From: a virus
Taxonomy: Duplodnaviria; Heunggongvirae; Uroviricota; Caudoviricetes
DNA length: 64,000 bases
Direction: 5' to 3' (one strand)
IMG/VR virus record: IMGVR_UViG_2675903675_000001
Coordinates: 1 to 64,000 of that record
Shown: positions 4,264 through 41,855 of the stretch, in pieces
Layout: each line of letters begins with the position of its first letter
Position numbering within the stretch: the first letter of the stretch is position 1
Notes under the pieces: model-generated
Seen by the model: only the letters and a program-made list of their open reading frames with translations
What the model was told of the DNA's origin: nothing
The model's database searches: none
Program-made: the position numbers and the translations under genes

Positions 4264-4601
4264 AAAAATTTTTACTCTCTATAGCGGTCTTTTTGTCTTT
4301 TGTTTTACTAAGCTCGGCTTACGCATCTAAAACAACGACCGACACTGCGAGCTTTACGAAGCAAGTCTCTAATTGCCGCGCTTATATTGACGGGATGACT
4401 TTTCCAGCGGTTGTTGTTGATACTCGTCGAAGTTTTATTGTTTTTGTTGATGGTCGAGAATACGCATCACCAGCTTTAGTCAACGGTTCTGGGGATTTGG
4501 TTTCAAGCGCGGAAAGCGATAAATTTAAGATAACAAGCGAAGGTTACACGGTATCAACGCCTGATGGTGTTTTTGATATAAGAAAATGCCAACTTTCTTG
4601 A
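4257..4601 (+). CDS. secreted protein with signal peptide (114 aa)
   Basis: N-terminal 'MLKKFLLSIAVFLSFVLLSSAYA' signal peptide. Confidence 0.5.
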   Translation: MLKKFLLSIAVFLSFVLLSSAYASKTTTDTASFTKQVSNCRAYIDGMTFPAVVVDTRRSFIVFVDGREYASPALVNGSGDLVSSAESDKFKITSEGYTVSTPDGVFDIRKCQLS

Positions 4602-4635
4602 TACTCTTTTTTAACGACCGCTGTGGTGAGTGCTG

Positions 4636-4794
4636 CTCTCGATAGTGGTCGTTTTGTTTTTGCTCTCTATAGCGGTCGTTCATTCCCTATTTCTTTGATT
4701 TTCTGATTTTTTCTAATAATTCCAACTCTTCCCTAGTCAATTCAGCCAAAACAGTATCTCCACTCTCTATAGCGGTCTTACTCTCTATAGCGGT
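4636..4794. repeat. iteron set downstream of repA (incA-like): 4 copies of CTCTC[T/G]ATAG[C/T]GGTC
   Basis: 15-mers at 4636-4650, 4663-4677, 4762-4776, 4780-4794; the last two lie inside the repA 3' coding end and encode the duplicated 'KTAIES'. Confidence 0.8.
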
Positions 4795-5703
4795 CTTACC
4801 CTTCTTGGGTTGCTTAGGCGTTTTTGTTTTGTTGAGTTTTGGCATTCTTTCGTGGATTAAAAAGTAAACTGCGTTACCTCTTTTAGTCTCAGTGCAGTCC
4901 AAATACCCTATTTCTTTTAACTGATCTAAAGCTCTTCTGACTGTCGCATTTTGCGTATTGACCCTAGATTTTAAGTTTAATCTCGCTCTTAGCCTCGCCA
5001 TAGATACCGGAGCAGGGTTGCTTGGCAAGCTCTCAATGAACGTATACAAAGCCTGTGCGCTCTCTTTCCTAGGTAATTCGTTGATGGCCCTCAACTGCAA
5101 CAAAACCTTGTGATCAAACTGGTATAACTCAAATATCTTTGGGTCTGCTTGAATAGTTACGGTATCGGCATCCATGTCGTAAGAAGCTGATTGAACAAGA
5201 TGCGTGTGGTAAGCCTTTTTATCATTTGTAAACGATAGCGTTGTTGACACAATACGTCTTAGGGACTCGTCCAGCCTTTCTCTTAGTCGCTTTGACGATC
5301 TGGACGAGGGTATTCCACAAAGTTTAACAAAATCAACAAACTTCAACGTTACCTTGTCACCTATCACCTTATGTTTAGCGAAAGAGTGAATAATGCCGAT
5401 CCATGTTTTGAAATCATTATCCATATCAAGACGTTCACCAGTTATCTTGATATTGGTGTAACCTTCTGATTTAGCTAAAGACAATTGCCTCAATTCATCA
5501 GTAGCATCCATCACCGCCATGAGATTTCGCTTACTGTTTTTGGTTGATTTAAGCGTAGGAACAAACAAGCCCAGTCTCATCAGTGCGACTGGCTGTACGG
5601 TGTTGTTACCGTTGGGAGATAACGTTACAAGCTCACCCGTATCTTTGTTAGCTTCTGAAAAATAAGGTAATAATTTACCATCTTCGCTTTTTTTAGTAGG
5701 CAA
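4687..5703 (-). CDS. repA: plasmid-type replication initiator, RepA-like (iteron-binding)
   Basis: 338-aa ORF sitting between two arrays of the same 15-bp iteron, as in P1 and other iteron-replicon plasmids; basic C-terminus; the protein family call is by context, not by a recognised motif. Confidence 0.6.
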
Positions 5704-5751
5704 GAATACACCCCTTTCGTTAAATCAGCTCTCACAGCGGTCTATTATTAC

Positions 5752-5941
5752 CTCTCTACATCGGTCGTGTCACTGTCTACAGCCGTTTATTTGCTCTCTA
5801 TAGCGGTCGTTGTTTGGTGAAATATCAGCGGTGATTCGTGTGTGGATAGTTTTATGCGCTGCTCTCTATAGTGGTCGTTAATCACTGTCTATAGTGGTCG
5901 GTCTGCTCTCTATAGTGGTCGTTTTACTCTCTATAGTGGTC
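5752..5941. repeat. iteron set upstream of repA (origin iterons): 7 copies, mostly at 21-bp phasing
   Basis: CTCTCTA[C/T]A[G/T][C/T]GGTC-type 15-mers at 5752, 5773, 5794, 5862, 5885, 5906 and 5927; 21-bp spacing within each triplet, i.e. two helical turns. Confidence 0.8.
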
Positions 5942-5981
5942 ATCAACCCCCTCTCAGGTCTTATGCACCAAGGGCTGCGGC

Positions 5982-23728: not shown

Positions 23729-26700
23729 TCAGATTTTTCCACCGACACCTTTGAACTTTTCAATAAAATTGACGAACTTCTGGTATACCGTCTGTTTCTT
23801 GGTTTTGTATTGAGGGTTCAGTGGACTGAGTTTAGGTAATGTATCATTCAGTGCTGTGCCGTTTTCCGTGGCATATTCACGCTTGAGGGCATTTCTGATG
23901 TAGCGTCTGGTGGCGTCTTCATTCAGATTTTCCTCTTTTATTAAGGCGTCAGCCTCACGCAACTGAGCTTCTTGAGCGAACGTGTAGAATGCTTCAATAA
24001 TTCCTTCTCTATTCGTCATATCATCGAGGTTGGTCTGTTCGATAAAATCAACCATCAGCCCCTCCTTGGCTCTATTGCCGAGACTAGCACGAATCAACCG
24101 TTTCACTTCCTCTTTCACGGTGGCTTTGTCGGTATTTTTTTTGTGGTAGTCGTAAATTAGCCCCAGAATATAGTCGAGGTTAATCTCCTGAGACTTCAGC
24201 AAATCTATTTCAAAGACCACATCATCCCAGTCAACGTTCGTGCTATCCTTTTCATTGGCAGAGCGCTCACGGCGTTGCCAGTCACGAATATCGTTGTAGC
24301 TTGAGCGGTAGTCCTGAATTTTTCGCTCAGCCGGTAATCGTATGATTTGAAGTTCAGCAAATTTCTCATCATCCAGATAATGCTCGTTTTTAAATGCTTC
24401 CACAGCAACCGGATCGCTAAGATTAACGGTTTGCAGGGCTTTCAGTGAGGTAAATTCATCATAGTTTTGTAGGATACTCTCTGCTCGCAAGTACTCACCA
24501 AACAGTTTAACAAAGGCTTTCTTCTCTTTCTCCGATTCAATATCTGCTGGGTTCGGAAAGCGCGTTTCTAGCTCGGTGACGATATTCATAAAACCACGGC
24601 GAGCCTCACCCGTTACCGCATCTGTAAAACCTTCCATGTACTCTGTGTAACTTTTTTCCATCACCACACTTTTAGTATTACTTTTTCCAAACAGGGTGAT
24701 GGCATCAATGGTTGCCTGCTCTAAATCGCGGAAGGTGACAATGTTACCGAAAGTTTTCGTCGCATTGTAAATCCGGTTAGTCCGGGAAAATGCCTGCATC
24801 AATCCGTGATAACGCAGGTTTTTATCCACAAACAAGGTGTTAAGCGTCGGAGCATCAAAACCGGTCAGGAACATACCAACCACAATCAGCAGGTCAACCT
24901 CCTGCCCTTTAACCCGTTTTGCAAGGTCACGGTAGTAGTTTTGAAAGCTATTTCCGTCGGTACTGAAGTTGGTTTTAAAGCTGGCATTATAGTCGCCAAT
25001 CGCTGATTCCAGAAACTCTCGGGCGCTGCTGTTCATTGCCGTGACATCAAAGCTCTCATCATTAATATCCCCGACCGCGTCCTGCTCTTCATTGGCGGCA
25101 AAAGAGAAGATGGTGGCAACGGTCAGGGGCTTGTAGCTGCTATCTTGTTCAATGGCAGCCTGCTGGATGTGTTTAAACGCTTCGTAGTAAGCTTTTGCGG
25201 CATCAACACTGCTGACGGCAAACATGGCATTGAAGCCCGTTGCACCCGGGAAAGCGCGGTGTGTTTTTTTTCGAAAGTTTTTTAGAATGTAGTGGGTGAC
25301 TTCACTAATTCGCATGGGGTGCAGCAGAGCGTGCTTGTTTTCAGCAGCAGTGAGTTTTTTCTCATCCGTCTCAGTTTCTATTTCTTTAAATTGCGGGCGA
25401 ACATCATTGTAATCCACCTTAAACTTCAGCACTTTCTCATCACTAATGGCATCGGTGATAATGTAGGAATGCAGTTCTGCACCAAAAACGCTGGCAGTAT
25501 CTTCTGCACCTAAGGCATTTTTACCCGCAAAAATCGGCGTCCCCGTAAATCCGAACTGATAGAAACGTTTGAATTTCTTTTTCAGGTTCTTCTGAGCTTC
25601 ACCAAACTGACTGCGGTGACACTCATCGAAAATAAAAACAACTTGTTGCTGATATACCGGTAAATCAGCTTCTGCTTTTATCAGGTTGTTCAGTTTTTGA
25701 ATAGTAGTGACAATAATTTTGTTATCATCTTTTTCTAAATTACGTTTCAGCCCTGCCGTGCTATCAGAGCCATTCACGCTATCAGGGGAAAAGCGCTGAT
25801 ACTCTTTCATGGTCTGGTAATCGAGGTCTTTACGGTCAACCACGAAGAACACTTTATCTATGAAATCCAGTTCGGTCGCCAATCGTGCCGCTTTAAAGCT
25901 GGTCAGAGTCTTTCCTGAACCTGTGGTGTGCCAAATAAAGCCACCACTTTCTTTGCTGCTCCAGTTTTTGGCGTGGTAGGTACTGTTAATTTTCCACAAA
26001 ATACGCTCAGTAGCGGCTATCTGGTAAGGACGCATAATCAGCAGGTTATTACTGATATCAAAGACAGAATAATTGAACAAAATGTTCAGTAGAGTATTTT
26101 TTTGGAAGAATGTCGCCGTGAAATCTTTTAGGTCTTTAATTAGCGTATTGTCAGACCTAGCCCAATTCATGGTGAAATCAAAACTGTTCTTATCCCGTTT
26201 TGTGGTATTAGCAAAGTAACGGGTATCTGTGCCGTTTGAAATGATGAACACTTGCAGATATTTAAACAGAGAATTGTCGGTGTTGAAACTCTCTTTACTG
26301 TAGCGATGTATCTGGTTAAAGGCTTCTTTAATCGCGACACCACGTTTTTTAAGCTCAATTTGCACCAAGGGTAAACCGTTAACTAAGATAGTGACATCAT
26401 AACGATTAGCGTGGGTGCCCGTTTGTTCAAATTGCTGAATGACCTGCACTTTGTTACGAAGAAGATTTTTCTTATCAACAAGGTAGATATTTTCTAATCG
26501 TCCATCATCAAAAGTGAAGTCGCAGATATAATCGATATGAATTTTTCGGGTCTTATCAACAATTGAATCGCTTGGGTTATCCAAATACTGCTCAGTAAAA
26601 CGCCGCCATTCACTTTCAGTAAAAAACACTTTATTCAACGTTTGAAGCTGTGCACGTACGTTTGCTAGCATCGTGGATTGTGATGTTATATCAGGGACAA

Positions 26701-26851
26701 ACTCATACCCTTGATTACGTAAATCCTGAATCAGTTCGCATTCTAAATCTGCTTCACTTTGATAGCGGTCATTCTCATCCCACTCAGTCACGTATTTATC
26801 CAGCACAATAAAGTTATTGGATTCGGCAATGGTTTTTATTTGCTGCGTCAT
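23729..26851 (-). CDS. hsdR: Type I restriction enzyme, restriction subunit HsdR
   Basis: 1040 aa; SF2 helicase motifs '[12 protein letters not shown]' (I), '[10 protein letters not shown]' (II, DEAH-type), 'FGFTGTP' (III); size and order typical of HsdR. Confidence 0.9.
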
Positions 26852-26929
26852 ACGGCTCCCTGCTTTTTCATTCTGTTGTGCTGAATGCCGGTAAAACCGG
26901 CATAACAGACGTTATCAGGCGGTCATGTG

Positions 26930-28140
<1,211 letters not shown>

Positions 28141-28144
<4 letters not shown>

Positions 28145-29697
28145 ACCTGCACCTCGCTGCTTTCAATTTCTGCCACTATCGCATCGATATCTGTACGTAG
28201 CTGGTCAATTCTGGCAACTGTCTTTTTCAACTCAGCATTCAGTTCAGTAATGTTAACGATTTCGCGGGTGTCTTCGGCTACCACATAGCTACTGACTGAC
28301 AGGTTATAGTCATTGGCAGCTACAGCTTCAGACGTGACAGATTTTGCTAGATAGTCTGTATCTTCTTTGCTGTCGAAGACCTGCATGATTTGTGCGATTT
28401 GTTCATCCGTCAGGACGTTGTTATTGGTCTCTTTTTTGAATAAGCCGCTGGCATCAATAAACTGCACGTTCGTATCTGTTTTATGCTTTGACAGCACCAG
28501 AATATTCACGGCAATGGTTGTTCCGAAGAACAGGTTAGGCGCTAAAGAAATCACCGTTTCAACATAGTTATTATCAACCAAATATTGCCGAATTTTTTGC
28601 TCTGCACCACCACGGTAGAAAATCCCCGGAAAACAGACTATTGCCGCACGTCCCTTGGATGACAGATAATTTAGTGCATGGAGGACAAACGCAAAATCCG
28701 CTTTTGATTTTGGTGCCAACACCCCCGCTGGGGCGAAGCGATCATCATTAATCAGTGTCGGGTCATCACTGCCAATCCATTTCACCGAATAAGGTGGATT
28801 AGACACAATCGCATCAAACGGCTTGTCATCCTTAAATTCAGGTGCAAGTAAGGTGTTGCCCAGTTTAATGTTGAATTTATCGTAGTTGATGTTGTGCAGG
28901 AACATGTTCATACGCGCAAGGTTAAAGGTCGTATGATTAATCTCCTGACCAAAGAAGCCGTCTTCGATGATGTGATTATCAAAGTGTTTTTTCGCCTGAA
29001 GCAGCAGTGAACCGGAACCACAGGCAGGGTCATAGATTTTATTCACGTGAGTCTGACCGTGCATAGCCAACTGAGCAATCAGTTTTGACACATGCTGAGG
29101 TGTAAAGAACTCACCGCCTGACTTACCGGCATTGGCTGCATAATTAGAAATCAGAAACTCATACGCATCGCCGAACAGGTCTATTTGATGCTCGATAAAG
29201 TTACCGAGCTTTAATCCCTCCACGCCTTTCAGCACAGCGGCAAGCCGGATGTTTTTATCTTTGACGGTGCTTCCCAGTCGATTACTGGTGGTATCAAAAT
29301 CGGCGAACAAGCCTTTGATATCCGGTTCAGATGGGAAGCCAGACGCAGAGCTTTCAATTGCCACAAAAATACTGTTTAAATCTGCGTTTAGTCGGTCATT
29401 GGTGTTCGCTTTAGCCGCCACATTGCAAAACAGTTGACTCGGATAAATAAAATACCCTTTCGTTCTGACAGCATCTTCTTTGATATCGTTAGTGATTATA
29501 CTGTCATCAAGCGCCGCATACCGGATACTGTCATCACCGGCTTCAATGTAATTAGCGAAGTTTTCACTGATAAATCGGTAAAACAGCGCCCCAAGAACAT
29601 ATTGCTTAAAGTCCCATCCATCCACTGAACCTCGGACATCGTTAGCTATTGCCCATATCTGGCGGTGTAGTTCTGCTCGCTGTTGTAAACTTGTCAT
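28141..29697 (-). CDS. hsdM: Type I restriction-modification N6-adenine DNA methyltransferase HsdM
   Basis: 518 aa; motif I '[12 protein letters not shown]', motif IV 'NPPYSVKW'; N-terminal HsdM_N-like helical domain. Confidence 0.9.
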
Positions 29698-30293
29698 AAT
29701 TCATCCTGTTAAAAACTGATCATGCATTCTTGCTAATCACACTTAAAAGCAATAGTCATTCTGAGGTTAATATTGTTTTTTTGAAAATTATACTCTAACT
29801 ACTACTTTTTAGCGAAAACTGGGATTTTCAATTAGAAGACTCATTAGCGCATAAATACTTCGGGATTGAAGTCATTAAGCGTGTTAAAGATCCCTCTGCT
29901 GTGTCTACAATGTTTAATGTCAATAATTCGTTTATTTATGGCAAAGAATGCGGGGATATTGTTTATGATATTTAAACCTGAAACATACGTTCACTCAAAA
30001 GGCTTTGGAGCCTAATTTATGAAGCAGCATGGCGTGTCGGTTGGAGAGCATTAAAAACGATTTGCTGGCTGGTGCTATGGCACGGTTTCTACCTAACTAG
30101 GTATTTGCTGTTGCTCAATATATTGCCTGATGATGGATATTGGCGCTCCGCCGCGTTAGCTTGTTGAGAGATGGTGCAGCCAGACCGAGGAACCCACTGA
30201 GGTGAATCAGACTTCTGTCTGAGTGCTATAGGAATCCTCGTCCTTTAGGACGAGGAGGATGTCAAAGGGTCTGTAGTATTTGATTATTAATAA

Positions 30294-30860
30294 TCAGAAA
30301 CGGTAACCAACGCCAAGATTAAAGCCATTAATAGAATGACTGCCATTCATATCAATCTTCGTACCTTCATAGCCTAAGTTAACAGATACATTTTTGATTG
30401 GATTAATGACAATTCCCGCACCGTAAGCGAAATTGGTTTTTGTGGTAGATGCTGATTCATACTCATAATAACCTTGCTCTTTATAAGAACTTTCCACATC
30501 AGCTTTCATGCGCGCAGCACCAATTAATCCATATAAACTAACATAGTCATTAATACGATACGCAGGCCCTGCAAGTAATGAATAATATTTCAGATCTGCT
30601 TTAGCTTTTAAATAGTCACCCATGTCATTGCTTTCATGAGCAGAATCATCACCCTTCATATAAGTGAATGAACCAACAATACTGACAGGTGAATCCCACT
30701 CATAACGATACTGTAAATTTACGCCATGAATATTTTTAAAATCTTGGACTTTACTCTGAGCATAACCTATAGATACCGTTTGATTGTCAGCGTAAGCCAT
30801 ACTTCCAAACAAGCACCCTGCAACAATAATTGCTGATAAATATTTATTTTTTGTATTCAT
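30294..30860 (-). CDS. Ail/Lom/OmpX-family outer-membrane beta-barrel protein
   Basis: ATG at 30860 on the minus strand; signal peptide 'MNTKNKYLSAIIVAGCLFGSMAYA'; alternating amphipathic strands and a C-terminal 'GVGYRF' ending in Phe, typical of 8-strand OMPs of the Ail/Lom/PagC family. Confidence 0.75.
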   Translation of the reverse strand: MNTKNKYLSAIIVAGCLFGSMAYADNQTVSIGYAQSKVQDFKNIHGVNLQYRYEWDSPVSIVGSFTYMKGDDSAHESNDMGDYLKAKADLKYYSLLAGPAYRINDYVSLYGLIGAARMKADVESSYKEQGYYEYESASTTKTNFAYGAGIVINPIKNVSVNLGYEGTKIDMNGSHSINGFNLGVGYRF

Positions 30861-31359
30861 GTTTAATGTAATCCATTGATTTAAAATTAATAAAAATAAA
30901 ACAACCACTAAAAACTACTAACAATTAAGAATAAATTAAATCATTACATAATGTTATTATCAATGTATTTTTGTGATTTAGTGTAAAAAATACAAGATGT
31001 TTATTTTGTATTACTTAGTTGTTTTTGTTCTGATATAAGAATGATCTTTTTTGTTTTGGCTTAATTTTCCAAGCCGCCGTCTCAGGTTTAATCTCTAAGA
31101 GACAATGAACGCGATAAACTAGTTTATGTTTAAAGGGGGAGCCTTGGAATATTAGTCGGAAATAGAATTCCCAGAAACTTGACTGAAGTGAGTCAAAAAC
31201 TGCTCCTTACTTAAAGAAACTGGCATTGTTTTTTCTTATAAAAACTAACGTTTTGACGATTGAAATAAATACCTTTATTTGCTTATTGTCAGCCTTTTTT
31301 TACATGTGAAAATAAAATCAATAAGAAATTGATATTAATTACATGATGAGGTTAACAAT

Positions 31360-33051
31360 ATGGGCACTTTAGTTGCTTCCACCGCTGATTTACTGTTCCA
31401 ACAAAACGATGTGGCTTTCCGTGAGGAAGTTAATCAAATCAGAAGCGTGATTGCCGAGTATCAACGTGAAGAAGCTGAACGTGAAATGCTTCATAAAATC
31501 TTATTTTCTGGTGATCGAGTTTCTAAGATTAATCAGTTATTAGATGAAGCATCAAAACCTGGTGAAAGAAATTCAGGTTTTTACCGATTACCCAATCAAA
31601 TTGACTTCGATTATGTTCGTTCAAATTTAAGAGCGCAGTATTGGCAAAAGGTTGTCGATATGACAAACGTTCTTCAACTAATGCCAGCAAACCGTCGTGA
31701 GCAGTGGAGAAGCCAATTCATTGAAGGCAAAATGACGCTGGATAATCCGCTAGAACATGGTAAACGTCGCGTTACAGGTGATTATGTTGGTGTGCCTGAG
31801 TTTAATGAGAATACGGTAGTTCCAACGCTTTTAGGTTTGCTAAACGACAGAAACATGTATTTGAATGAGCGTGTTTATAATGTGTTCAGCGTTCTAAGCC
31901 CTAAGCACAAAACTAATAAAAGCTATGGCTTTTCTGAAAAATTGATTGTCGCCGACGTGGTATCACAGTTTTGGGGCAACAGCGTTTGGCTGAATACCTA
32001 TCGAGAAGACAACATTGACGATCTAAGAATGACATTGCGGTTCTTCGCTCACGGTAGATTTGGTCGCGTTCAGAGTTTGAAGGATGTGTTGAGTAAAGTA
32101 TACACGGACGGTAATGTTGGAAAGTGGGCTTCAATTGACGGCAATGTGATGCGTGTGAAGATGTTTAAGAATGGCAATTTACATATTGAAATTCACCCTG
32201 ACGTTGCATGGCGGCTCAACGAAGTGCTGGCGGCATCATTACCGTACGCAATCCCATCCGAATTTAGAAGTGTACCTAATTCACGTTCAGCGGTGAAAGA
32301 TTTTGGGGAAATTATCCATATCTTAGATGAAGATATGATATCGCTAATCGCCAACACCTACATAGATAAGAAAACAGGCAAATACAAGTGTTTGGATAAC
32401 AACTGGAACCGCCACAAAGCATCACATAAAGAATATAATTCGATTATGCAAAAGTTAGGAGGCGAGTTCGATCCTGAGATTAAATCATGGTCATTTAGTT
32501 ATGATTTTGATTGTGTGAGAGGTTACATTGTCGAAAATCGTTCAATGCCAGATCAGAAAAGTTACCAGTTCTACCCTACACCGGAGACTATTCAAGTTTA
32601 CGTTTCGGATTTAATCACGTTACAGGACGACGAAACCCTATTAGAGCCATCAGCAGGACGGGGTGACTTGATTTCACCAATAAACCAACCAGAGCAAACA
32701 ACGTGTATTGAGCTTTCCCCTTTGTTCTGCCAGATATTAAAGTCAAAAGGGTATGAGTCAATCAATGAAGACTTTTTGAAATGGTCGAGTAATAACGAAG
32801 GCGTTTATTTTGATAAAATAGCCATGAACCCACCTTACTCAGAAGGTAGAGCAAAGGTCCATGTGAAAGCGGCAATCAGTCATTTAAAATCAGGTGGTCG
32901 TTGTGTTGCGGTTGTACCCGGAAGTGAGCGTATGGATTGGGTTGATAAGTCGCTATACTCGGTTGAGGACTGCGCCACGTTCAGTAATGAATTTGAAGAC
33001 ACAGGCGTAACAGTGAAAGTATTTACGATAGATAAGCGTCGGAAATTATAG
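31360..33051 (+). CDS. 563-aa protein with a C-terminal gamma-class-like SAM methyltransferase domain (motif X 'FYPTP', motif I 'LLEPSAGRGDL', motif IV 'NPPY'); the N-terminal 400 aa are unknown
   Basis: Motif order X-I-IV within residues about 405-500 as in gamma-type N6-adenine/N4-cytosine MTases; only about 50 aa follow NPPY, so no C-terminal TRD. Confidence 0.6.
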   Translation: MGTLVASTADLLFQQNDVAFREEVNQIRSVIAEYQREEAEREMLHKILFSGDRVSKINQLLDEASKPGERNSGFYRLPNQIDFDYVRSNLRAQYWQKVVDMTNVLQLMPANRREQWRSQFIEGKMTLDNPLEHGKRRVTGDYVGVPEFNENTVVPTLLGLLNDRNMYLNERVYNVFSVLSPKHKTNKSYGFSEKLIVADVVSQFWGNSVWLNTYREDNIDDLRMTLRFFAHGRFGRVQSLKDVLSKVYTDGNVGKWASIDGNVMRVKMFKNGNLHIEIHPDVAWRLNEVLAASLPYAIPSEFRSVPNSRSAVKDFGEIIHILDEDMISLIANTYIDKKTGKYKCLDNNWNRHKASHKEYNSIMQKLGGEFDPEIKSWSFSYDFDCVRGYIVENRSMPDQKSYQFYPTPETIQVYVSDLITLQDDETLLEPSAGRGDLISPINQPEQTTCIELSPLFCQILKSKGYESINEDFLKWSSNNEGVYFDKIAMNPPYSEGRAKVHVKAAISHLKSGGRCVAVVPGSERMDWVDKSLYSVEDCATFSNEFEDTGVTVKVFTIDKRRKL

Positions 33052-33339
33052 AGCGAAATAGCCACGTCAAAGGTGTTGACGTAAAATCTGTCATATTGAC
33101 GTTTTCTATAAGTGCGAATTGACTATCATTTTAAGCCTCTTTTTGAGGTTTTTTTGTTAATTAAATCAAGTAGTTGAGTATGTGTAAGAGTGCGAAAGCC
33201 TAGATCAACGTAAAGTCAACGAAAAAGTGACTTTTGAAGAGCAAAAAGTTGATCTATTTACAAACCAATTCTTACACAATTAAAACCAGAATTGGAGGCT
33301 CAGCGAACAAACAAATTAAATAGAATAAATCTAAAACGC

Positions 33340-34060
33340 CACCCAAAGATGACCCAACAAATCCACCCTAAATTCATTCCTGAACATTGCGGAATATCAA
33401 CCAACCAAAGAACCCAAAGAGCAGCCCAAAGCAAACCGCAAATAACAACCCACCTAACTACACCAGGTTAAATGACCCACCTAATATCCAAAGGCAACCA
33501 ACCAAAGTTTCCAAGGCGATTAACACTCCGCAAGAAAAACCTAGAAGAGACAAACAATCAATAAATCCCAATACGTCACCACCAACAGTAACAACAACTA
33601 AGAGTGAACGAAAACAAAGGGAAAGCCCACACGTCAACCATCACAGCAAGGAATAAGCCATAGATAAACAATCCCACTAAGCAAACCGCAAAGATAACTA
33701 AATAATACAATTTCCCAATACGTCATCACTAACAGCAATAAGAAAACAAGAGAAGCAACCAAACAACCACAGCAAGCAATAACCCAATAGAACACCCATA
33801 GAGACAACCAACAATCAAACGCAGATACAAGCCATTACAGGAAGCATTACACGCAATACATTAAAAGCAACCCCATAGGAAGAACCGCAGTAAAGAACGA
33901 AAGTAACCTCGTAGGAAGATAAGCAGTAAGACAGCGGATATTGTTATAGGAAATACAGCCCTTAAAACGGAGACAGTTGAACGTTTAAGACAGCAAATAT
34001 TCAGAGGAGTAAGTCAGGAAGGTAGGACAGAAGATAAGTTAGGAAGTATAAGGCGGTAAA
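33340..34060 (+). other. T-depleted noncoding block: about 450 nt A+C-rich (33400-33840), then about 220 nt A+G-rich (33840-34060); no ORF on either strand
   Basis: Hand counts give 4-12 T per 60 nt, about 10-13% against about 30% elsewhere; G is also very low in the first part; nine GGA/AGGA motifs in the purine-rich part. Confidence 0.8.
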
Positions 34061-34069
34061 AAGTGAAGC

Positions 34070-34450
34070 GGGCGCGTTCAATCGCCGTATTTATCGGTCA
34101 TATCATTAGCCTTTACCTCAGCCAGCCGACGGGAAGCTCCCTACGGTTGGAAACGGGAAACGGCGGCGAATTCCCTTCGGTCGGCTTCGGGAAACGGCGA
34201 GCAATCGGTACTATGGAAAAACGTGTCGGCGGAAAGTTGTCCCGAGAAAATCGGTAGAGATGAGAAATTCTGATTAGCGGCAAATTCACCGCTAGACAAT
34301 AAGGGAGAAGTGGCTTGTTTGCATCAAGCGCCTAGCAGCACATTCACATACCATATTATACACGACCCTCAGAGGGTGGAGTAACGAAATAAGTCGGTCT
34401 TGGTTCCCCTTCGGCTACCTTCGGTTACCGTCGGTTCAATTTAACCTAAC
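34070..34450 (+). ncRNA. GC-rich, UUCG-tetraloop-rich candidate structured RNA/DNA element
   Basis: At least four local hairpins with cTTCGg loops (e.g. 'cccttcggtcggcttcggg', 'ccccttcggctaccttcggttaccgtcgg') and the motif TTCGGGAAACGG, which also appears in each 33-bp repeat at 38247-38399. Confidence 0.3.
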
Positions 34451-34452
34451 TT

Positions 34453-34560
34453 TGCCTGTTGATAGTTCTCTACGCCTTGTTGATTTAATTTCCTGCCTAT
34501 TTGAATGCTTCATAATTATCTCATCGAAACAAAAACAACGAATTTAAAATTAAGGATTTC
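34453..34560 (+). promoter_or_regulatory. promoter/leader module P2 (copy 1), duplicated at 34932-35040
   Basis: About 95-nt near-identical block 'gcctgttgatagtt...cataattatctcatcgaaacaaaaacaacgaattYaaa' followed by an AAGGA RBS. Confidence 0.6.
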
Positions 34561-34562
34561 AC

Positions 34563-34814
34563 ATGAGTAAATTAATTAACTGTCGTACAGCACGTTTATA
34601 TCAAGCAGGTCATGAGTTGGACGAAGCGGTAAAGCGTGGCGCAAATGCCAACTTATTTATGCAATATGACGAAAAGTACAAAGGTGGCTCAATTCCCTAT
34701 CATGACCTGTATGGAACAACACCAACTAAGCCGTATAGCTGTGAATATCATACAGGCGGTCGTATGGGGGAGCAGTTGAGACAAGGGGCAAGTAGTAGAC
34801 GAGATCATCAGTAA
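34563..34814 (+). CDS. hypothetical small protein (83 aa)
   Basis: RBS 'aaggatttcacATG'; own promoter module and own terminator. Confidence 0.55.
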   Translation: MSKLINCRTARLYQAGHELDEAVKRGANANLFMQYDEKYKGGSIPYHDLYGTTPTKPYSCEYHTGGRMGEQLRQGASSRRDHQ

Positions 34815-34848
34815 ATAATTTTAGATGCGCCTTGTATCAGGGAAACAG

Positions 34849-34873
34849 AGTGGACTTCGGTCCACTTTTTTTA
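34849..34873 (+). terminator. UUCG-tetraloop rho-independent terminator (module T, copy 1)
   Basis: agtggac-ttcg-gtccact followed by T7; the whole block 34818-34875 is duplicated at 35806-35865. Confidence 0.8.
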
Positions 34874-35040
34874 ATTGCGCTAACCTTCGACAATAACATC
34901 GATAAGAAAACAATTTCATTGTGATAAATTTGCCTGTTGATAGTTTTCTTCGCCTTTCTTATTTAGTTCTACGCCTACTTGATTCCGTCATAATTATCTC
35001 ATCGAAACAAAAACAACGAATTCAAATAAAGGATCACAAG

Positions 35041-35802: not shown

Positions 35803-35836
35803 TAGATTTTAGATGCGTCTTGCATCAGAGAAACAG

Positions 35837-35861
35837 AGTGGGCTTCGGCTCACTTTTTTTA
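35837..35861 (+). terminator. UUCG-tetraloop rho-independent terminator (module T, copy 2)
   Basis: agtgggc-ttcg-gctcact followed by T8. Confidence 0.8.
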
Positions 35862-35969
35862 ATTGAGTCAACCGACGGGAATAACATCGATAAGAAAACA
35901 ATTTCATTGTGATAAATTTACCGTTAAGATATCGGCGTTATTTACACAATCATCGATAAGGAAATCGAT

Positions 35970-36460: not shown

Positions 36461-36550
36461 TTTGTGCCCTTTCGTTAATCCTTTTGTGCCTATCTGCTGG
36501 TGGCAAAATACATCCATCAAAACGAGAAACATAAATAAAAGGATTACAGT

Positions 36551-36999: not shown

Positions 37000-37159
37000 G
37001 GTTAATATCCGCCGAAGGGTAAATAAACACAATGCCTAGCTCCCATAGTATTTAATAGATTTATTTCAATCCCGTTGGTAAAAACTATTTCGCCTTTTCC
37101 TACATGTAATAATTACTTCATTAAGAAATACAACTAAACAAATTAATGGAGTAAACAGT

Positions 37160-37534
37160 ATGAGCAATATCGTTAAGAAATTCGAAAAGGCAATTGTAGC
37201 TTGTTTTAGTGACGCTAAGGTGACGGTTGTTTTCCCGTTCAACGATAAAATTCGCCGTTCTAAAAATCTTGATTTTGATCTATCTTATCAAACTTCCAGT
37301 GAGCTAATTGCGGTTGCAGAAGAACGCGGGGTAAAATTGTCGGTAGATGATATTGTTCATCTCGTTAACTGTCGGATCTCTCACGTCTCTTCTATTTATC
37401 AAGATGTTGAGATTGAGGATGTTGAGCTAAAGCTCAGGGACGGGTCAACTAAACTAACTCGCACTCTCAGAACGCCTAGTATGACTTTAAGTAATTATGA
37501 TCGCAGTCATATTCGCATTTTGAGTGGCGCGTAA
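37160..37534 (+). CDS. hypothetical protein (124 aa)
   Basis: Leader 'cattaagaaatacaactaaacaaattaatggagtaaacagtATG' is nearly identical to the leader of the 37799 gene. Confidence 0.55.
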   Translation: MSNIVKKFEKAIVACFSDAKVTVVFPFNDKIRRSKNLDFDLSYQTSSELIAVAEERGVKLSVDDIVHLVNCRISHVSSIYQDVEIEDVELKLRDGSTKLTRTLRTPSMTLSNYDRSHIRILSGA

Positions 37535-37562: not shown

Positions 37563-37582
37563 AGCGGCTAACGCCGCTTTTC
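37563..37582 (+). terminator. rho-independent terminator
   Basis: agcggc-taac-gccgct followed by tttt. Confidence 0.5.
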
Positions 37583-37584
37583 AA

Positions 37585-37656
37585 CCCACCTCTTTTAATC
37601 AGGCAAACAACCCACCTCTTTTAATCAGGCAAACAGCCCACCTCTTTTTATCAGGC
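37585..37656. repeat. 24-bp tandem direct repeat x3 (caacccacctcttttaatcaggcaaa)
   Basis: Units at 37585-37608 and 37609-37632 are identical; 37633-37656 has 4 mismatches. Confidence 0.85.
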
Positions 37657-37798
37657 GTTTAATCTAGAAGCCGTAGGTAGCCTAAGATGTGGTGAATATA
37701 ATCTCAAGACCCGTCAATCATTACTTTTTGCCCTATCTGCTGGTGGCATAATTACATCATTAAGAAAAACAACTAAATAAATTAATGGAGCAAACAAT

Positions 37799-38104
37799 AT
37801 GCGACCTAATGCCTATAGCCACAGCCACGTAAACAACCTTTTTCTCGATAACGCTCAGTTAGAACGTGAGCAACTTTTGGATGCGGCAATTGAAAAGCAG
37901 ATTATAGAAAGTCGCGACAATCTTCACCGCAAGATACGATTGGCTGACCGCATTCGTAACGCCAATGATGAAACTAAACGTCCGTCTGCTTGTGAGAAGA
38001 TTACACTGGTCGCCTTTTCTCTGAACAAAGAGCCGCTGTATTCCGATGGTGAGTCGTTCTATACGCTTGATAAGCAATTCAATCGAACCCTATTTAGTCT
38101 GTAA
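37799..38104 (+). CDS. hypothetical protein (101 aa)
   Basis: Duplicated leader and RBS GGAG; promoter-like 'tgccctatctgctggtggcataattacatc' (TGn-CATAAT extended -10) upstream. Confidence 0.55.
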   Translation: MRPNAYSHSHVNNLFLDNAQLEREQLLDAAIEKQIIESRDNLHRKIRLADRIRNANDETKRPSACEKITLVAFSLNKEPLYSDGESFYTLDKQFNRTLFSL

Positions 38105-38129
38105 CGTTGTGTGTGTTGTGTGTAATTAA

Positions 38130-38157
38130 GATGCGGGGTTGCTCCCGCATCTTTTTG
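38130..38157 (+). terminator. rho-independent terminator
   Basis: gatgcggg-gttgct-cccgcatc followed by T5. Confidence 0.75.
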
Positions 38158-38246
38158 TTCCAGAGTTTGCCGTCGGTAGCCTTCGAGTGATAGCCGGACA
38201 GATTTGCGGTTTGCGTCGGGCAGCGGTTGCGCCGTCGGCTGGTGGT

Positions 38247-38399
38247 GGTTTCGGGAAACGGGTAGAAAAGGCAATGGTAGGTTTCGGGAAACGGGTAGAA
38301 AAGGCAATGGTAGGTTTCGGGAAACGGGTAGAAAAGGCAATGGTAGGTTTCGGGAAACGGGTAGAAACGGCAGTTGTCGGTTTCGGGAAACGGGGCGAG
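38247..38399. repeat. 33-bp tandem direct repeat, about 4.6 copies (ggtttcgggaaacgggtagaaaaggcaatggta)
   Basis: Copies at 38247, 38280 and 38313 are identical; 38346 is diverged; a partial unit at 38379; no intervening spacers. Confidence 0.9.
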
Positions 38400-38439
38400 T
38401 TTCGCCTCATGCGAACGATGAGGAAAGTTAAATGAGACT

Positions 38440-38550
38440 GATTGTTATTTGATGGATTATCTCATTTGAGGGTTGCCCTTGTTTGATGACTATTCTCATT
38501 TGAGAACCGTCCTTATTTGAGAACCTCCCTTATTTGAGAATTAATCTCAA
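38440..38550. repeat. cluster of 5 degenerate [T]ATTTGAG[A] 9-mers at roughly 20-bp spacing, followed by an AT-rich stretch
   Basis: 'ctcatttgagg', 'ctcatttgagaa', 'cttatttgagaa', 'cttatttgagaa', 'tctcaatacg'-type repeats visible between 38451 and 38545. Confidence 0.6.
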
Positions 38551-40090: not shown

Positions 40091-40618
40091 TTACTCTGCT
40101 AATGATCCGTCATCTTCAAGCGGAACAATACGTTTAACCGCATCATACATAATCAAGACCTGACCTGTGGATGTGGCTATCTGCAAAGAATCTAAGTCGT
40201 GGCTAAAACTAAAGCCCTTATATATTTTTCCGCTTTTTAGAAGCACCGAAACGTCTTTCTTGGTCGCGTGGGCTTTTCTCAAAATTGGATGGAAAGTTTT
40301 AAATTTAGGTAAGGTGGATTTGTCAAAATACTGAGTTTTCGAATCCGACTCATCGAATTCTCTTCTTTCGATAACCTCAACTGTAGCAATTTCCGCCAAT
40401 AACATTCTCCTATCAGAAAAAACGACCACGCCTCTTCTGGCGTTTATCTTCACAGGGTTGGTTGTAAAAATTTCGCCGTTGAGTTTTGTTACCTTAACAG
40501 ATTTGTTTTTAGCTTTTGCTAAATTGGAAATCAGAGTTAACGCTCCACGATATATTCTTTCGTTAAATCGATTAATGCCATATGTAACATCCACCTTTGG
40601 CAATTCACTGTTAATCAT
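40091..40618 (-). CDS. hypothetical protein (175 aa)
   Basis: Minus-strand ORF; basic; no motif recognised. Confidence 0.5.
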   Translation of the reverse strand: MINSELPKVDVTYGINRFNERIYRGALTLISNLAKAKNKSVKVTKLNGEIFTTNPVKINARRGVVVFSDRRMLLAEIATVEVIERREFDESDSKTQYFDKSTLPKFKTFHPILRKAHATKKDVSVLLKSGKIYKGFSFSHDLDSLQIATSTGQVLIMYDAVKRIVPLEDDGSLAE

Positions 40619-40797: not shown

Positions 40798-41193
40798 TTG
40801 GATGCGGTTGCGTCAAAAGAGGTTCCGATTGAGAGAATGTATTGGGAGTCAGGTAGAGAAAGCAGCAATGGAGACAGTGTTATTATTGTCAAGCGAGATT
40901 CAGGGCCTACCTACTCCGCCTGTACTGCGAATATCTTTTTTCAAGGTACTCGGGTTTCTGAGTTAGAACCTGGTGAAAAGGTTACGATGTACGTTAATAG
41001 CGGTGAATACGTTATTGGTGAGTTCCTAAGTGGAGCCGGTTGTTTACCGTTTCTAAAAACATTGGTTGCGGTGATAAAGCCGAACTCTAATAACGTCTTT
41101 AGAGTAAAAACTACGTTCATGGGTGCTAACGGTGGTGATGCTCTTATTCGTGACAATGACATATCCATGGTGCTGATGAACAGCTTAAATTAA
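40798..41193 (+). CDS. hypothetical protein; possibly a frameshifted lipoprotein (see findings)
   Basis: 131-aa ORF; an upstream 24-codon ORF in another frame (40761-40832) encodes a lipoprotein signal peptide 'MKNKILLTILVSIGC'. Confidence 0.4.
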   Translation: MDAVASKEVPIERMYWESGRESSNGDSVIIVKRDSGPTYSACTANIFFQGTRVSELEPGEKVTMYVNSGEYVIGEFLSGAGCLPFLKTLVAVIKPNSNNVFRVKTTFMGANGGDALIRDNDISMVLMNSLN

Positions 41194-41225: not shown

Positions 41226-41855
41226 TTAAACAATCATACTTTTAATCGTCGCAATGCCTTTCTCGGTTAAAGCCCAAGTTATCTTGTCGCGGCTAGGGTC
41301 TAATCGCATAAAATCACCATCTAAAGATCGCTTAGTTGGCATGTCGTCAGATTTTTTTAACCAACCTAATAATTGAAGTGTGGTAATTAGTCGAGATACC
41401 GGAATGTTCAATTCTTTTGATGCTGGCAATCTGTTGTAGGTCTTTGTTTCATCATTTTCAATTTGCTCTAAACTATCCAACTCGGTTAAAAAGTTTTTCG
41501 ACCACTCATCTTCTATTCTCGTTTTTTCTAACATTTCCATGATGGACGAGACTGAAACAACTTTGTTAACAAGGATGTGTTCAACCATTTGCAAGAAACC
41601 TAGTGAGGTTCTGTCTTGTTTACTTCCTTTTGTTAGCGCCATATCAGCTAAAATTGACTTCAATAAATTCGCCCCTGATAGATGGGGATGTGCTCTCATG
41701 AAATCAATAAATTCAGCCGCGTATGTTTGACCCAAAGAATGATCGTCTTTATTAGCTGGTTTCCAATAGACTATCTTTGATGGAGATTTTCCGCCAATGA
41801 ATGGAAGATTTAAAAATAAATTGATGGTTTGATTGTTGTTTAGCTGCTTTGCCAT
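41226..41855 (-). CDS. hypothetical protein (209 aa)
   Basis: Minus-strand ORF; no motif recognised. Confidence 0.5.
   Translation of the reverse strand: MAKQLNNNQTINLFLNLPFIGGKSPSKIVYWKPANKDDHSLGQTYAAEFIDFMRAHPHLSGANLLKSILADMALTKGSKQDRTSLGFLQMVEHILVNKVVSVSSIMEMLEKTRIEDEWSKNFLTELDSLEQIENDETKTYNRLPASKELNIPVSRLITTLQLLGWLKKSDDMPTKRSLDGDFMRLDPSRDKITWALTEKGIATIKSMIV

Follow-up and report, generated by a model that had tools for sequence, protein, structure and literature searches.

The gap at 33052-34562 of the window (the whole 64,000-nt stretch of viral DNA analysed here, which is an SSU5-type phage-plasmid of Moellerella) is, as judged by comparison of related sequences, a composite module of non-coding DNA conserved in SSU5-type phage-plasmids. 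The module runs in the order promoter/operator-like block, T/G-poor tract, hairpin, G-rich repeat block, and promoter cassette of the next gene (Table 1). Its length is about 1.4 kb, with a tract of about 590-800 nt, and it was single-copy in every SSU5-type element examined (11 lineages, 859 PLSDB plasmids, and 12 phage records); the 11 lineages came from Moellerella, Morganella, Pectobacterium, Providencia, Salmonella, E. coli, and Klebsiella. We tentatively read the tract as a lytic-phase, untranslated, single-stranded leader of the Rho-loading type that would act as RNA, an explanation that we regard as possible without calling it probable.

Table 1. Features of the module and of its partner locus (positions in the window)
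Feature	Position	Strand	Remarks
Block 1, TTGACG/ACGTCAA hexamer copies and invariant TTGACGTTTTCTATAAGTGCGAATTGACTATCA (33096-33128)	33064-33128	+	
Intrinsic terminator of the upstream gene, AAGCCTCTTTTTGAGGTTT and T-run	33133-33158	+	terminator scan
Block 2, promoter/operator-like element	33203-33283	+	spacing identical in an alignment of 10 lineages
A/C-rich, T- and G-poor tract	33290-33839	+	A 47%, C 28%, G 12%, T 13%
Tract, purine-rich continuation	33840-34046	+	68% purine; (Y)AGGAAG and ATAGA-type motifs
TATAAG anchor and hairpin (purine arm/pyrimidine arm), then CCGTATTTAT	34047-34098	+	
G+C-rich block of short direct repeats	34100-34446	+	34-nt unit x2 (34127-34194) with GGGAAACGG
Repeat block, further elements	34203; 34291-34342	+	AATCGGTAC at 34203; CGCTAGACAA..TTTGCAT..CAGCACA at 34291-34342
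Repeat block, CCTTCGG/CCGTCGG x3	34407-34433	+	
Promoter/leader cassette and Shine-Dalgarno of the variable downstream gene	34447-34562	+	outside the biased tract
Partner locus, 4 kb downstream	37582-38546	+	3 x 26-nt CCCACCTCTTTTAATCAGGCAAA (37582-37659)
Partner locus, arrays	38214-38411; 38445-38546	+	5 x 33-nt GGTTTCGGGAAACGGGTAGAAAAGGCAATGGTA (38214-38411), perfect; 3 x 34-nt CTCATTTGAG (38445-38546)

The lack of ORFs in this gap, noted in an earlier sequence-only reading, was confirmed. No ORF of at least 90 aa was present on either strand from the DUF4942 methyltransferase gene (31360-33051) to an 83-aa ORF at 34563, and the longest one within the gap, which starts with TTG, was of 89 aa. 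The + strand of the tract had 11-21 stop codons in each frame, and no reading frame was kept among the homologues when the tract was considered as a protein-coding gene or pseudogene. A frameshifted ORF across the tract, which the same reading had named as evidence against its proposal, was not found; the ORFs annotated over the tract in relatives disagreed in frame and strand and included the promoter block, and the PGAP annotation of most PLSDB plasmids was empty at the module. Small ORFs filled in at the module by some annotation pipelines are probably spurious. A GTG-start 64-aa ORF at 34063 was rejected because it was not conserved (36-83 aa in relatives, start codon missing in SSU5). The base after T was A about as often as the composition predicts, and thus there was no special stop-codon signal. 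The search for tRNA and tmRNA found none, and Rfam at the gathering threshold gave no match in the whole 64 kb, with only chance-level matches (E>1) in the region at E<10. The neighbouring genes and both flanking terminators were all on the + strand. The gap was heterogeneous: the biased tract was restricted to 33290-34046, 34060-34446 was G+C-rich and repeat-rich, and 34447-34562 was a copy of a promoter/leader cassette. The genes on both flanks were variable and the flanks recombination-prone; eight Chi sites, all on the + strand, were present in the window, and the region lay 13 kb from the terminase genes.

Base composition was measured in 300-nt windows across the 64 kb. T fell to a minimum of 0.11 against a mean of 0.286 (sd 0.044); the windows with T below 0.16 were all inside 33276-34075, and none had A below 0.16. 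The strong T-depletion claimed for this region was therefore real and unique in the window, and its extent had been overstated: A+C in 33400-33840 was 76% (A 47.8%, C 28.6%, G 12.2%, T 11.3%) rather than about 85%, purine in 33840-34060 was 68% rather than about 80%, and T in the latter segment was 17% rather than the 10-13% given for the whole. Over the first 550 nt of the tract, C/G was 2.25 (window mean, 0.87 ± 0.2), YC dimers numbered 12.5 per 100 nt (versus 8.8 ± 1.9), and the GC skew was strongly negative (-0.3 to -0.5); the cumulative GC skew showed no switch of polarity at the module. C/G across the whole tract was 1.3-2.2 in the 11 lineages. Degenerate directional repeats were found within 33290-33839 (CCCACCT..AGGC at 33449 and 33476), and CCCAATACGTCA-type units in the tract at 33562, 33626, and 33709.

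The predicted minimum free energy (MFE) of 33290-33839 on the + strand was -43 kcal/mol, compared with -137 ± 16 kcal/mol for 43 other 550-nt windows (z = +5.9), and 71% of the + strand tract RNA was predicted to be unpaired. The complement was predicted to fold normally (-135 kcal/mol), and in every one of the 11 lineages the MFE per nt of the + strand was about half that of the complement. The proposals that an RNA from this strand would be unable to self-pair and that the tract is non-coding and strand-asymmetric were thus borne out computationally, the former for the + strand only. G.U pairing makes an asymmetry of T/G depletion matter specifically for RNA. The tract had no significant long-range complementarity to other parts of the window. 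The segment 34060-34450, considered as a structured RNA, was no more stable than expected (z = +0.5 and +1.3) and showed little covariation (RNAalifold covariation term, about -1 kcal/mol); a large structured ncRNA (GOLLD, ROOL, HEARO, or OLE-like) or a group I/II intron was rejected on these fold scores and the lack of an Rfam match.

Among the 11 lineages, the tract had T of 0.13-0.18 and G of 0.14-0.19. A (0.35-0.48; 0.35 in SSU5) and C (0.20-0.31) traded off with the genome G+C, so that A+C was constant at 0.66-0.71. The purine-rich tract end was present in all lineages, and the GGA motif itself was not kept. The search for relatives that keep the composition rather than the sequence, which the sequence-only reading had recommended, gave a positive answer: identity went down to 55-59% and T and G stayed low. 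It was composition scans and shared anchors alone that revealed the homology to SSU5; a blastn search of phages with the window copy and a protein-anchored viral scan gave no match, two exact-pattern scans of viral contigs gave 0 and 14 matches, the 14 by chance, and two such scans of metagenomes gave one true relative, contig L040 (OJKJ01000038.1). Tract identity was compared with that at fourfold-degenerate sites of the adjacent methyltransferase gene, and was 0.67 versus 0.72 between SSU5 and Cyrano, 0.55 versus 0.45 between the window and Pectobacterium, and 90% versus 49% between Pectobacterium and Providencia, the last of which would reflect either sequence-level constraint or recent exchange. 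On these comparisons, the primary sequence of the tract seems only loosely constrained, with near-neutral drift in some of them. From the kept composition and the + strand MFE, it is the inability to pair that seems to be under selection.

Such fast drift, together with the recombination-prone flanks and the co-oriented Chi sites, would also suit a non-functional region (a decayed gene or filler left by mutation bias), a signal for packaging or recombination, or a strand on which modified thymidine is avoided, a set of explanations to which we give hardly any credence. Length, position in the module, and composition were kept in the 11 lineages and the 859 plasmids despite the differing host G+C, the skew was seen nowhere else in the 64 kb, and no reading frame was conserved, all of which argue against filler. 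The distance to the terminase genes argues against a packaging signal. If thymidine were modified, the other strand of the duplex would still carry T, and we know of no evidence for thymidine hypermodification in the SSU5-type group.

Block 1 was identical in the six sequences of alignment A1, occurred once in the window, and had a recognisable counterpart, TTGAGGATTTCTATAAGAG..CGTTGATCGCC, in SSU5, Cyrano, and the Klebsiella phages. The terminator hairpin that follows it was kept, with the loop or stem changed, in Pectobacterium, Providencia, and Morganella, and was absent in the SSU5 clade. Block 2 contained the direct repeats ATCAACG-N4-GTCAACG (33204-33221), an inverted GTTGATC, and a -35-like TTGATC (33249-33254) followed after an 18-nt spacer by a -10-like TACACA (33273-33278); the pattern RTCAACG-N4-RTCAAC occurred exactly once in each element, the 50-kb loci included. 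The tract begins about 10 nt or less from this -35/-10-like pair, on either side of which hexamer repeats lie. The -10-like hexamer is weak and lacks the conserved final T, and the consensus promoter scan did not call block 2; for these reasons we only infer its promoter activity, and describe block 2 as promoter/operator-like on its sequence. As for expression, CYRAN_103, an ORF over the tract start, had FPKM 0 in both LB replicates of E. coli LF82 with the relative Cyrano and was near the floor in macrophages, and the upstream gene CYRAN_102 was expressed in the Cyrano lysogen (PMC9928086, S1 Table); the data refer to uninduced lysogens, and the FPKM value covers the 5' part of the tract. 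A silent tract beside the expressed CYRAN_102 fits a repressed, lytic-phase unit.

In the leader reading, the + strand of the tract would be transcribed from the block 2 element only on leaving lysogeny. The product would be a long, untranslated, unfoldable RNA with C well above G, and by virtue of these properties would offer a factor that binds single-stranded RNA a very large platform to load onto; Rho would be the best match to the conserved composition and Hfq the second. The transcript would end or pause at the hairpin at 34047-34098, and the tract would gate or insulate transcription heading for the repeat block and the variable accessory genes that follow. In this scheme we infer that block 2 is an active promoter, that the timing is lytic, that the tract acts as RNA, and which factor is bound. 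With regard to the properties of rut sites, the tract contains a C-rich/G-poor segment of at least 80 nt and is predicted to be unstructured and untranslated. To our knowledge, 550-800 nt is far beyond the need of any known Rho loading site, and U-depletion is not a requirement of Rho. Alternatively, a 0.6-0.8-kb, fully single-stranded, U/G-excluding RNA might be made in bulk during the lytic phase as a trans decoy for Rho, Hfq, or RNase E. We consider this unlikely; if it were true, the function would be encoded in the composition and not in the sequence, and this would be a new kind of phage RNA.

The model of the sequence-only reading itself, a trans-acting sponge ncRNA in which an Hfq-binding ARN tract is followed by a CsrA-binding GGA tract, is in our view very unlikely. 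It accords with the A-rich, unstructured tract, in which about 41 ARN triplets occur in runs of at least three, and with the GGA motifs, of which at least nine had been reported. We counted 10 GGA in 33840-34060 (221 nt) of the window copy; the excess over mononucleotide shuffles (6.0 ± 1.9, p = 0.04) was marginal, and the homologous tracts of Pectobacterium, Providencia, and L040 had 4 each. Nor can GGA sit in hairpin loops, because the tract RNA does not fold. The ARN runs were at the level of dinucleotide shuffles in the window (p = 0.4-0.6) and in modest excess in three relatives, and A goes down to 0.35 in SSU5 with the T/G depletion retained. With GGA unconserved and composition sufficient to account for the ARN runs, there is no support for an Hfq/CsrA sponge in lysogeny; the FPKM of 0 over the tract start in LF82(Cyrano) is also against a sponge expressed in the lysogen, and bears on lysogeny and not on a lytic-only Hfq decoy. 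No Rfam family was matched, and the covariance models of CsrB, CsrC, and RsmX/Y/Z found nothing in the 64 kb. Sm/Hfq- and FljA-like proteins are encoded in the Moellerella, Providencia, and Pectobacterium lineage, which favours the model, but SSU5-type phages with the module lack the genes; a tie between the module and these proteins was rejected, as SSU5 has the module without them. A likeness between the E. coli fliC leader (verified sequence) and CCCAATACGT and AGCCGACGGG was likewise discarded as not significant, with p = 0.26-0.6 in the four other lineages tested and 0.04 in the window. Likenesses to a GcvB-type sponge, a MazF/ACA decoy, and a T7-like promoter were dropped, each without any conserved specific signal.

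Downstream of the tract, the TATAAG and CCGTA(TTT/GAA)AT anchors were conserved in the 11 lineages. A hairpin was present at the homologous position in each lineage, with weak statistical support, and was called terminator-like in Cyrano and one Klebsiella phage. No lineage lacked GGGAAA(A/C)GG copies, which with one exception lay on the + strand, and degenerate GGGAAACGG copies lay in the module at a spacing of 21-44 nt; motif copies were co-oriented with transcription except for three isolated minus-strand matches. The 34-nt unit, present twice in the module, resembles the 33-nt tandem repeat at 38214-38411, and in the iteron test the perfect 5 x 33 array was found only in the partner locus. 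This locus occupies a convergent intergenic gap after a terminator, and the gap is probably untranscribed. The cassette at 34447-34562 is AT-rich and 84% identical to 34925-35026, which precedes the next ORF; the gene downstream of the module varies among relatives.

Several families of short directional repeats are present in the tract and in the G-rich block after it; their recurrence in a perfect tandem array 4 kb away points to DNA-binding proteins, against the RNA reading. A close rival to the leader reading, with about the same likelihood, well short of even, is that the module and the partner array both gather sites bound by the same phage proteins and act in cis as DNA (as a lytic origin whose partner is an enhancer or a copy-control site, as dispersed centromere sites of the ParB-like proteins, or as repressor looping sites), the skew being a by-product of co-oriented A/C-rich sites. 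The families CCCACCT..CAGGC and TTCGGGAAACGG..CAATGGTA are common to the module and the 37.6-38.5-kb locus, the latter family forming the 5 x 33-nt array that adjoins 34-nt repeats and AT-rich DNA; the two-locus arrangement is also found in SSU5; and the repeat spacing of 26-34 bp is about three helical turns. The single copy per genome in 859 plasmids, the silence in lysogeny, the lack of RNA covariation or excess stability in the G-rich block, and the 90% tract identity between Pectobacterium and Providencia are consistent with such sites as well. Against them, the spacers between the recognisable repeats are equally T/G-poor, and A and C are exchanged with genome G+C as T and G stay low, for which an array bound as duplex has no need. 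Moreover, the SSU5-Cyrano tract drifts at about the neutral rate, the motif copies are almost all co-oriented with transcription, the GC skew does not switch polarity at the module, the RepB iterons are unrelated to the module repeats, and no candidate initiator or binding protein was identified.

A lytic origin of the R-loop type would combine RNA and DNA action: a promoter-driven, U-poor RNA would stay hybridised at the purine/G-rich tract end and would prime or open the DNA beside the iteron-like repeats. We think this rather improbable. Nearest-neighbour energies (RNA:DNA, Sugimoto 1995; DNA:DNA, SantaLucia 1998) made the module the most hybrid-favourable 1-kb + strand window in 3/3 genome segments (z = -2.3 to -2.9; -77 kcal/mol in the window, -101 in SSU5, and -71 in Pectobacterium Drgb1); owing to the homology of the element, the three results do not count as independent. 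In the SSU5, E. coli, and Klebsiella copies, the TATAAG anchor is succeeded by clusters of G, iteron-like repeats and AT-rich DNA are found downstream, and RNase H-like proteins are encoded by these elements. The energy advantage is modest, however, and is equalled by shorter windows elsewhere in the 64 kb, and the negative GC skew of the first 550 nt is opposite to that of classical R-loop-prone sequence.

Among clinical Klebsiella, E. coli, Enterobacter, and Salmonella, phage-plasmids of the SSU5 type are common. We know of no map of the control of lysis and lysogeny, the lytic origin, or the partition sites of the group, and our literature searches found neither a description of the module region nor any report of Rho-dependent 3' ends or bicyclomycin sensitivity there. 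The 1.4-kb single-copy module is an obvious candidate for a missing control element of the group, and its invariant blocks provide a compact typing marker. If the tract acts as RNA, this would be an unusual case of selection for base composition (inability to pair) while the sequence drifts, and Cyrano and PhiR41_1, which are tractable elements of E. coli, would allow a direct test.

Several known systems resemble the module in part. CrcZ/CrcY (Hfq/Crc, A-rich CA motifs) and CsrB/CsrC/RsmZ (CsrA, GGA loops) share with the tract its A-richness and repeated single-stranded motifs. The tract differs in being 2-3 times longer, without an Rfam match, and silent in the lysogen; its GGA motifs are unconserved and outside loops, its ARN and A content are unconserved, and it has no conserved AANAANAA or A-R-N repeats beyond composition of the kind expected of a CrcZ-type RNA. 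P4 ori/crr, P1 incC/incA, and SPP1 oriL/oriR have, like the module and its partner, two non-coding loci, a few kb from each other, with shared short direct repeats, one of them a regular tandem array adjoining AT-rich DNA; the module repeats are unrelated to theirs in sequence, and those origins have no 0.7-kb strand-asymmetric tract. ColE1 RNA II, T4 ori(uvsY)/ori(34), and mitochondrial LSP-CSB have the layout of the R-loop reading (a promoter, a non-coding transcript of several hundred nt, a G-rich hybrid-forming segment, and then a DNA-opening site), but ColE1 RNA II is highly structured, and the first 550 nt of the tract are C-rich, not G-rich. The rut regions (lambda tR1; the rho, mgtA, corA, and tna leaders) differ from the tract, which is 5-10 times longer, strongly U-depleted, and A-rich, with no antiterminator identified for the module; like the tract, they are untranslated, with C above G and an unstructured RNA 3' of a promoter, and, as proposed here for the module, a pause or hairpin is followed by gating of downstream expression.

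The gap between the methyltransferase gene (31360-33051, +) and an 83-aa open reading frame (ORF; 34563-34814, +) holds a composite region, here called the module (33052-34562), with a T- and G-poor core, the tract. As the sequence-only reading had stated, the gap is ORF-free (longest ORF, 89 aa; both strands checked) and holds a T-depleted block. That block is the sole such region in the 64 kb: T falls to 0.11 in 300-nt windows vs 0.286 +/- 0.044, and every 300-nt window with T<0.16 starts within 33276-33776. The stated degree of bias was too high: at 33400-33840 T was 11%, within the proposed 10-13%, with A+C at 76% rather than about 85%, and 33840-34060 was 68% purine with 17% T, not about 80% and 10-13%. 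The expectation that RNA of this strand would hardly self-pair was borne out by computed folding (33290-33839, + strand, -43 kcal/mol, compared with -137 +/- 16 in windows of 550 nt from elsewhere; z = +5.9); the complement had a normal folding energy.

Features of the module, of the partner locus about 4 kb downstream and of annotated ORFs (window coordinates unless a segment is named)
Feature	Position	Remark
TTGACG/ACGTCAA hexamers and invariant 33-nt block	33064-33128	
Intrinsic terminator	33133-33158	after hexamers and 33-nt block
Promoter/operator-like block	33203-33283	direct repeats ATCAACG/GTCAACG 11 bp apart and inverted GTTGATC
Biased tract	33290-34046	A/C-rich, then purine-rich
TATAAG anchor and purine-arm/pyrimidine-arm hairpin, then CCGTATTTAT	34047-34098	
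G+C-rich block	34100-34446	short direct repeats (GGGAAACGG, CCTWCGG) and invariant islands
Promoter/leader cassette copy	34447-34562	second copy precedes next ORF
Repeated cassette pair	34818-34934, 35806-35922	
Repeated cassette pair	34447-34548, 34925-35026	
Repeated cassette pair	37109-37162, 37748-37801	
3 x 26 nt CCCACCTCTTTTAATCAGGCAAA	37582-37659	partner locus
Perfect 5 x 33-nt array GGTTTCGGGAAACGGGTAGAAAAGGCAATGGTA	38214-38411	partner locus
3 x 34-nt repeats (next to AT-rich DNA)	38445-38546	partner locus, downstream of 33-nt array
SSU5_108, SSU5_109	L065 (SSU5 segment) 40891-41130, 41506-41703	SSU5 annotation within module
CYRAN_103, CYRAN_104	L066 (Cyrano segment) 1607-1963, 2453-2857	Cyrano annotation within module
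PhiR41_1 ORFs	L067 (PhiR41_1 segment) 1575-1961, 2486-2755	hypothetical proteins within module

In the promoter-like block, the inverted GTTGATC also supplies a -35-like hexamer, and after 18 nt comes a weak -10-like TAYAnn; this layout is alignable over ten lineages, and each element has a single occurrence of the repeat motif. The hairpin lies at the equivalent position in all lineages and was terminator-like by scan in Cyrano and one Klebsiella phage, with weak statistical support; a GTG ORF at the same place was discarded as a gene because it is not conserved. In the G+C-rich block, folding energy was not in excess and covariation was nearly absent. Repeated cassettes, 84-91% identical, separate the small genes that follow the module; one type is a terminator block of about 110 nt (TTTTAGATGCGCCTTGCATCAGGG..GTGGGCTTCGGCCCAC-Tn..AATAACATCGATAAGAAAACAATT), the other a promoter/leader block, and both are present in the Pectobacterium and Providencia elements. 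The layout has the look of a cassette system and could promote gene swapping. Two complementarities, neither statistically significant, were also observed: 22 nt (86%) between the methyltransferase gene 3' end (32973-32994) and the tract start (33370-33391), lost where the upstream gene differs, and a 13-nt motif, AAGCAAACCGCAAA, with two tract copies (33429/33679), complementary to 38202-38214 just before the 33-nt array.

The ORFs annotated within the module, probably spurious in SSU5, Cyrano and PhiR41_1 alike, differ in frame and strand between lineages, and at least one takes in the conserved promoter-like block. No ORF was found to span the region, each frame of the window copy holding 11-21 stops; the module is non-coding.

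The window is 97% identical to pW1-b, a 103-kb non-mobilizable Moellerella wisconsensis plasmid. It carries terminase, portal, capsid and tail genes, a RepB plasmid replicon, nrdAB/thyA/DHFR and ParB-like proteins, and its DUF4942 methyltransferase is 45-46% identical to the counterparts of Salmonella phage SSU5, Escherichia phage Cyrano and several Klebsiella phages; by this gene content and kinship we assign it to the SSU5-type phage-plasmids. The plasmid-mode origin is the region of 21-bp iterons (GCTCTCTATAGCGGTCGTT; 4274-4804, 5728-5944) on both sides of the RepB initiator gene (4687-5703, -); the iterons have no relation to the module repeats. Upstream of the methyltransferase gene, a type I restriction-modification system (hsdR, hsdS, hsdM) and a Lom/Ail outer-membrane protein gene occupy 23729-30908; since fimbrial usher and SPOR genes replace the type I system in pW1-b, this segment is a variable accessory island. 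Chi sequences (GCTGGTGG) number 8 in the 64 kb, all on the + strand (8/8; - strand, 0; expectation, about 1 per strand), at 36496, 37739, 38238, 52820, 60446, 60857, 60875 and 63969, two of the eight within repeated promoter cassettes.

In three further Moellerella plasmids the module is present at 93-96% identity with different flanking genes on both sides (a Clp protease replaces the methyltransferase upstream, and the downstream small ORFs differ). In Pectobacterium (Drgb1), Providencia plasmids, a metagenome contig and Logan contigs, blastn similarity is confined to the first 185 nt; despite this limit, the same order of compositions is found. SSU5, Cyrano and pJN2-26 had appeared to be without the module, because a gene comes straight after their methyltransferase; a scan for T-poor windows later located the SSU5 module 6 kb further downstream (record 90.39-91.8 kb) and another copy in a Morganella contig. 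With the SSU5 copy as query, the module was detected in 12/12 SSU5-type phage records and in 859 PLSDB plasmids (Klebsiella, 449; Escherichia, 224; Enterobacter, 91; Salmonella, 49; others), essentially one copy per record, and PGAP had no annotation there in nearly all the PLSDB cases listed. With this distribution the module is conserved and not an oddity of one lineage. One contig (JAEWTL010000044.1, "MAG: Bacillota bacterium") combines a methyltransferase gene of the SSU5 type with a copy of the module that closely resembles the SSU5 one; its Bacillota label is probably a binning error.

Conservation of composition rather than sequence, proposed in the sequence-only reading as a check, was found in 11 lineages: the tract has 590-800 nt with T 0.13-0.18, G 0.14-0.19, A 0.35-0.48 and C 0.20-0.31, A+C is steady at 0.66-0.71, and folding of the + strand is about half as strong as that of its complement in all 11. 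In the AT-rich elements of Moellerella, Providencia and Pectobacterium, much A goes with little C; SSU5 and the E. coli and Klebsiella elements show the opposite. Drift was gauged by tract identity vs identity at fourfold-degenerate sites of the adjacent methyltransferase gene: 0.67 vs 0.72 for SSU5-Cyrano, 0.69 vs 0.56 for SSU5-pJN2-26, 0.55 vs 0.45 for window-Pectobacterium and 0.90 vs 0.49 for Pectobacterium-Providencia, the last meaning either local sequence constraint or recent exchange. Across long distances the tract retains its lack of pairing partners for A and C, along with a few short motifs.

The observation behind the sequence-only reading is thus real and more general than could be known from one sequence. 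Its specific interpretation, a trans-acting sponge RNA for Hfq (ARN) and CsrA (GGA), is mostly wrong; the unstructured RNA and the conservation of composition survive. The sponge fails on several counts. GGA at 33840-34060 is only marginally enriched (10 vs 6.0 +/- 1.9 expected), shows no conservation (the Pectobacterium and Providencia tracts and that of the metagenome relative have 4 each) and is not displayable in loops; ARN runs are not above the level predicted from composition, which they track, and A content varies among lineages; and no Rfam family matched the module. A link to the Hfq-like and FljA-like proteins encoded by the lineage of the window was likewise rejected: tblastn of a 175-aa and a 76-aa protein against the phage collection, module-carrying SSU5-type phages included, gave no match, and therefore no co-occurrence. 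The former, FljA-like (40091-40618, -; Pfam Flag1_repress, PF03614, 31 bits, above cutoff), occupies the position of the SSU5 'transcriptional repressor'; the latter, Hfq/FljA-like, lies outside the window (L059 24605-24835) upstream of a DnaB-like helicase gene. FljA is a repressor of phase-1 flagellin; likeness of the module to the fliC leader was not significant.

The sole relevant expression data located in the literature are from lysogenic E. coli LF82 carrying Cyrano (PMC9928086, S1 Table; log2(5+FPKM)). CYRAN_103 extends over the promoter-like block plus the tract's first 240 nt. Its values lay at the floor (FPKM 0) in the two LB replicates and close to it in every macrophage sample; therefore, the tract is not a lysogenic transcript in Cyrano. 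CYRAN_104 (hairpin and G-rich block) was at about 6-12 FPKM, and the upstream gene CYRAN_102 at about 45-59 FPKM (PMC9928086).

Lysogenic silence and single-copy conservation would be explained by a purely DNA-level replication or partition site, a tentative reading about as probable as an RNA leader. Two module repeat families reappear 4 kb downstream at the ORF-poor partner locus (37582-38546), which lies in a convergent intergenic gap. This locus looks like a candidate lytic origin or centromere, and SSU5 shows the same pairing (partner equivalent, L065 44400-44470, 45050-45170). The shared families suggest that the protein(s) bound at the partner locus also bind the module, at least in its G-rich block. 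However, such a site leaves unexplained that the spacers are as T/G-poor as the repeats, that A and C are interchangeable, and that nearly all motif copies are oriented with transcription. In an R-loop variant, the module would act through a stable RNA:DNA hybrid. With RNA:DNA and DNA:DNA nearest-neighbour energies, reportedly those of Sugimoto 1995 and SantaLucia 1998, respectively, it was the most hybrid-favourable 1-kb + strand window in the window, SSU5 and Drgb1 (z -2.3 to -2.9), but this advantage is modest and the first 550 nt of the tract have strongly negative GC skew.

We tentatively prefer to regard the tract as a lytic-phase untranslated leader that may be selected for single-strandedness. 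Such a leader would be a platform of the Rho-loading type: C/G is high (2.25 in the first 550 nt of the window copy; 1.3-2.2 over the whole tract in 11 lineages), and the tract is unstructured and untranslated. Its RNA would act as a gate for transcription that runs on to the repeat block and the variable accessory genes.
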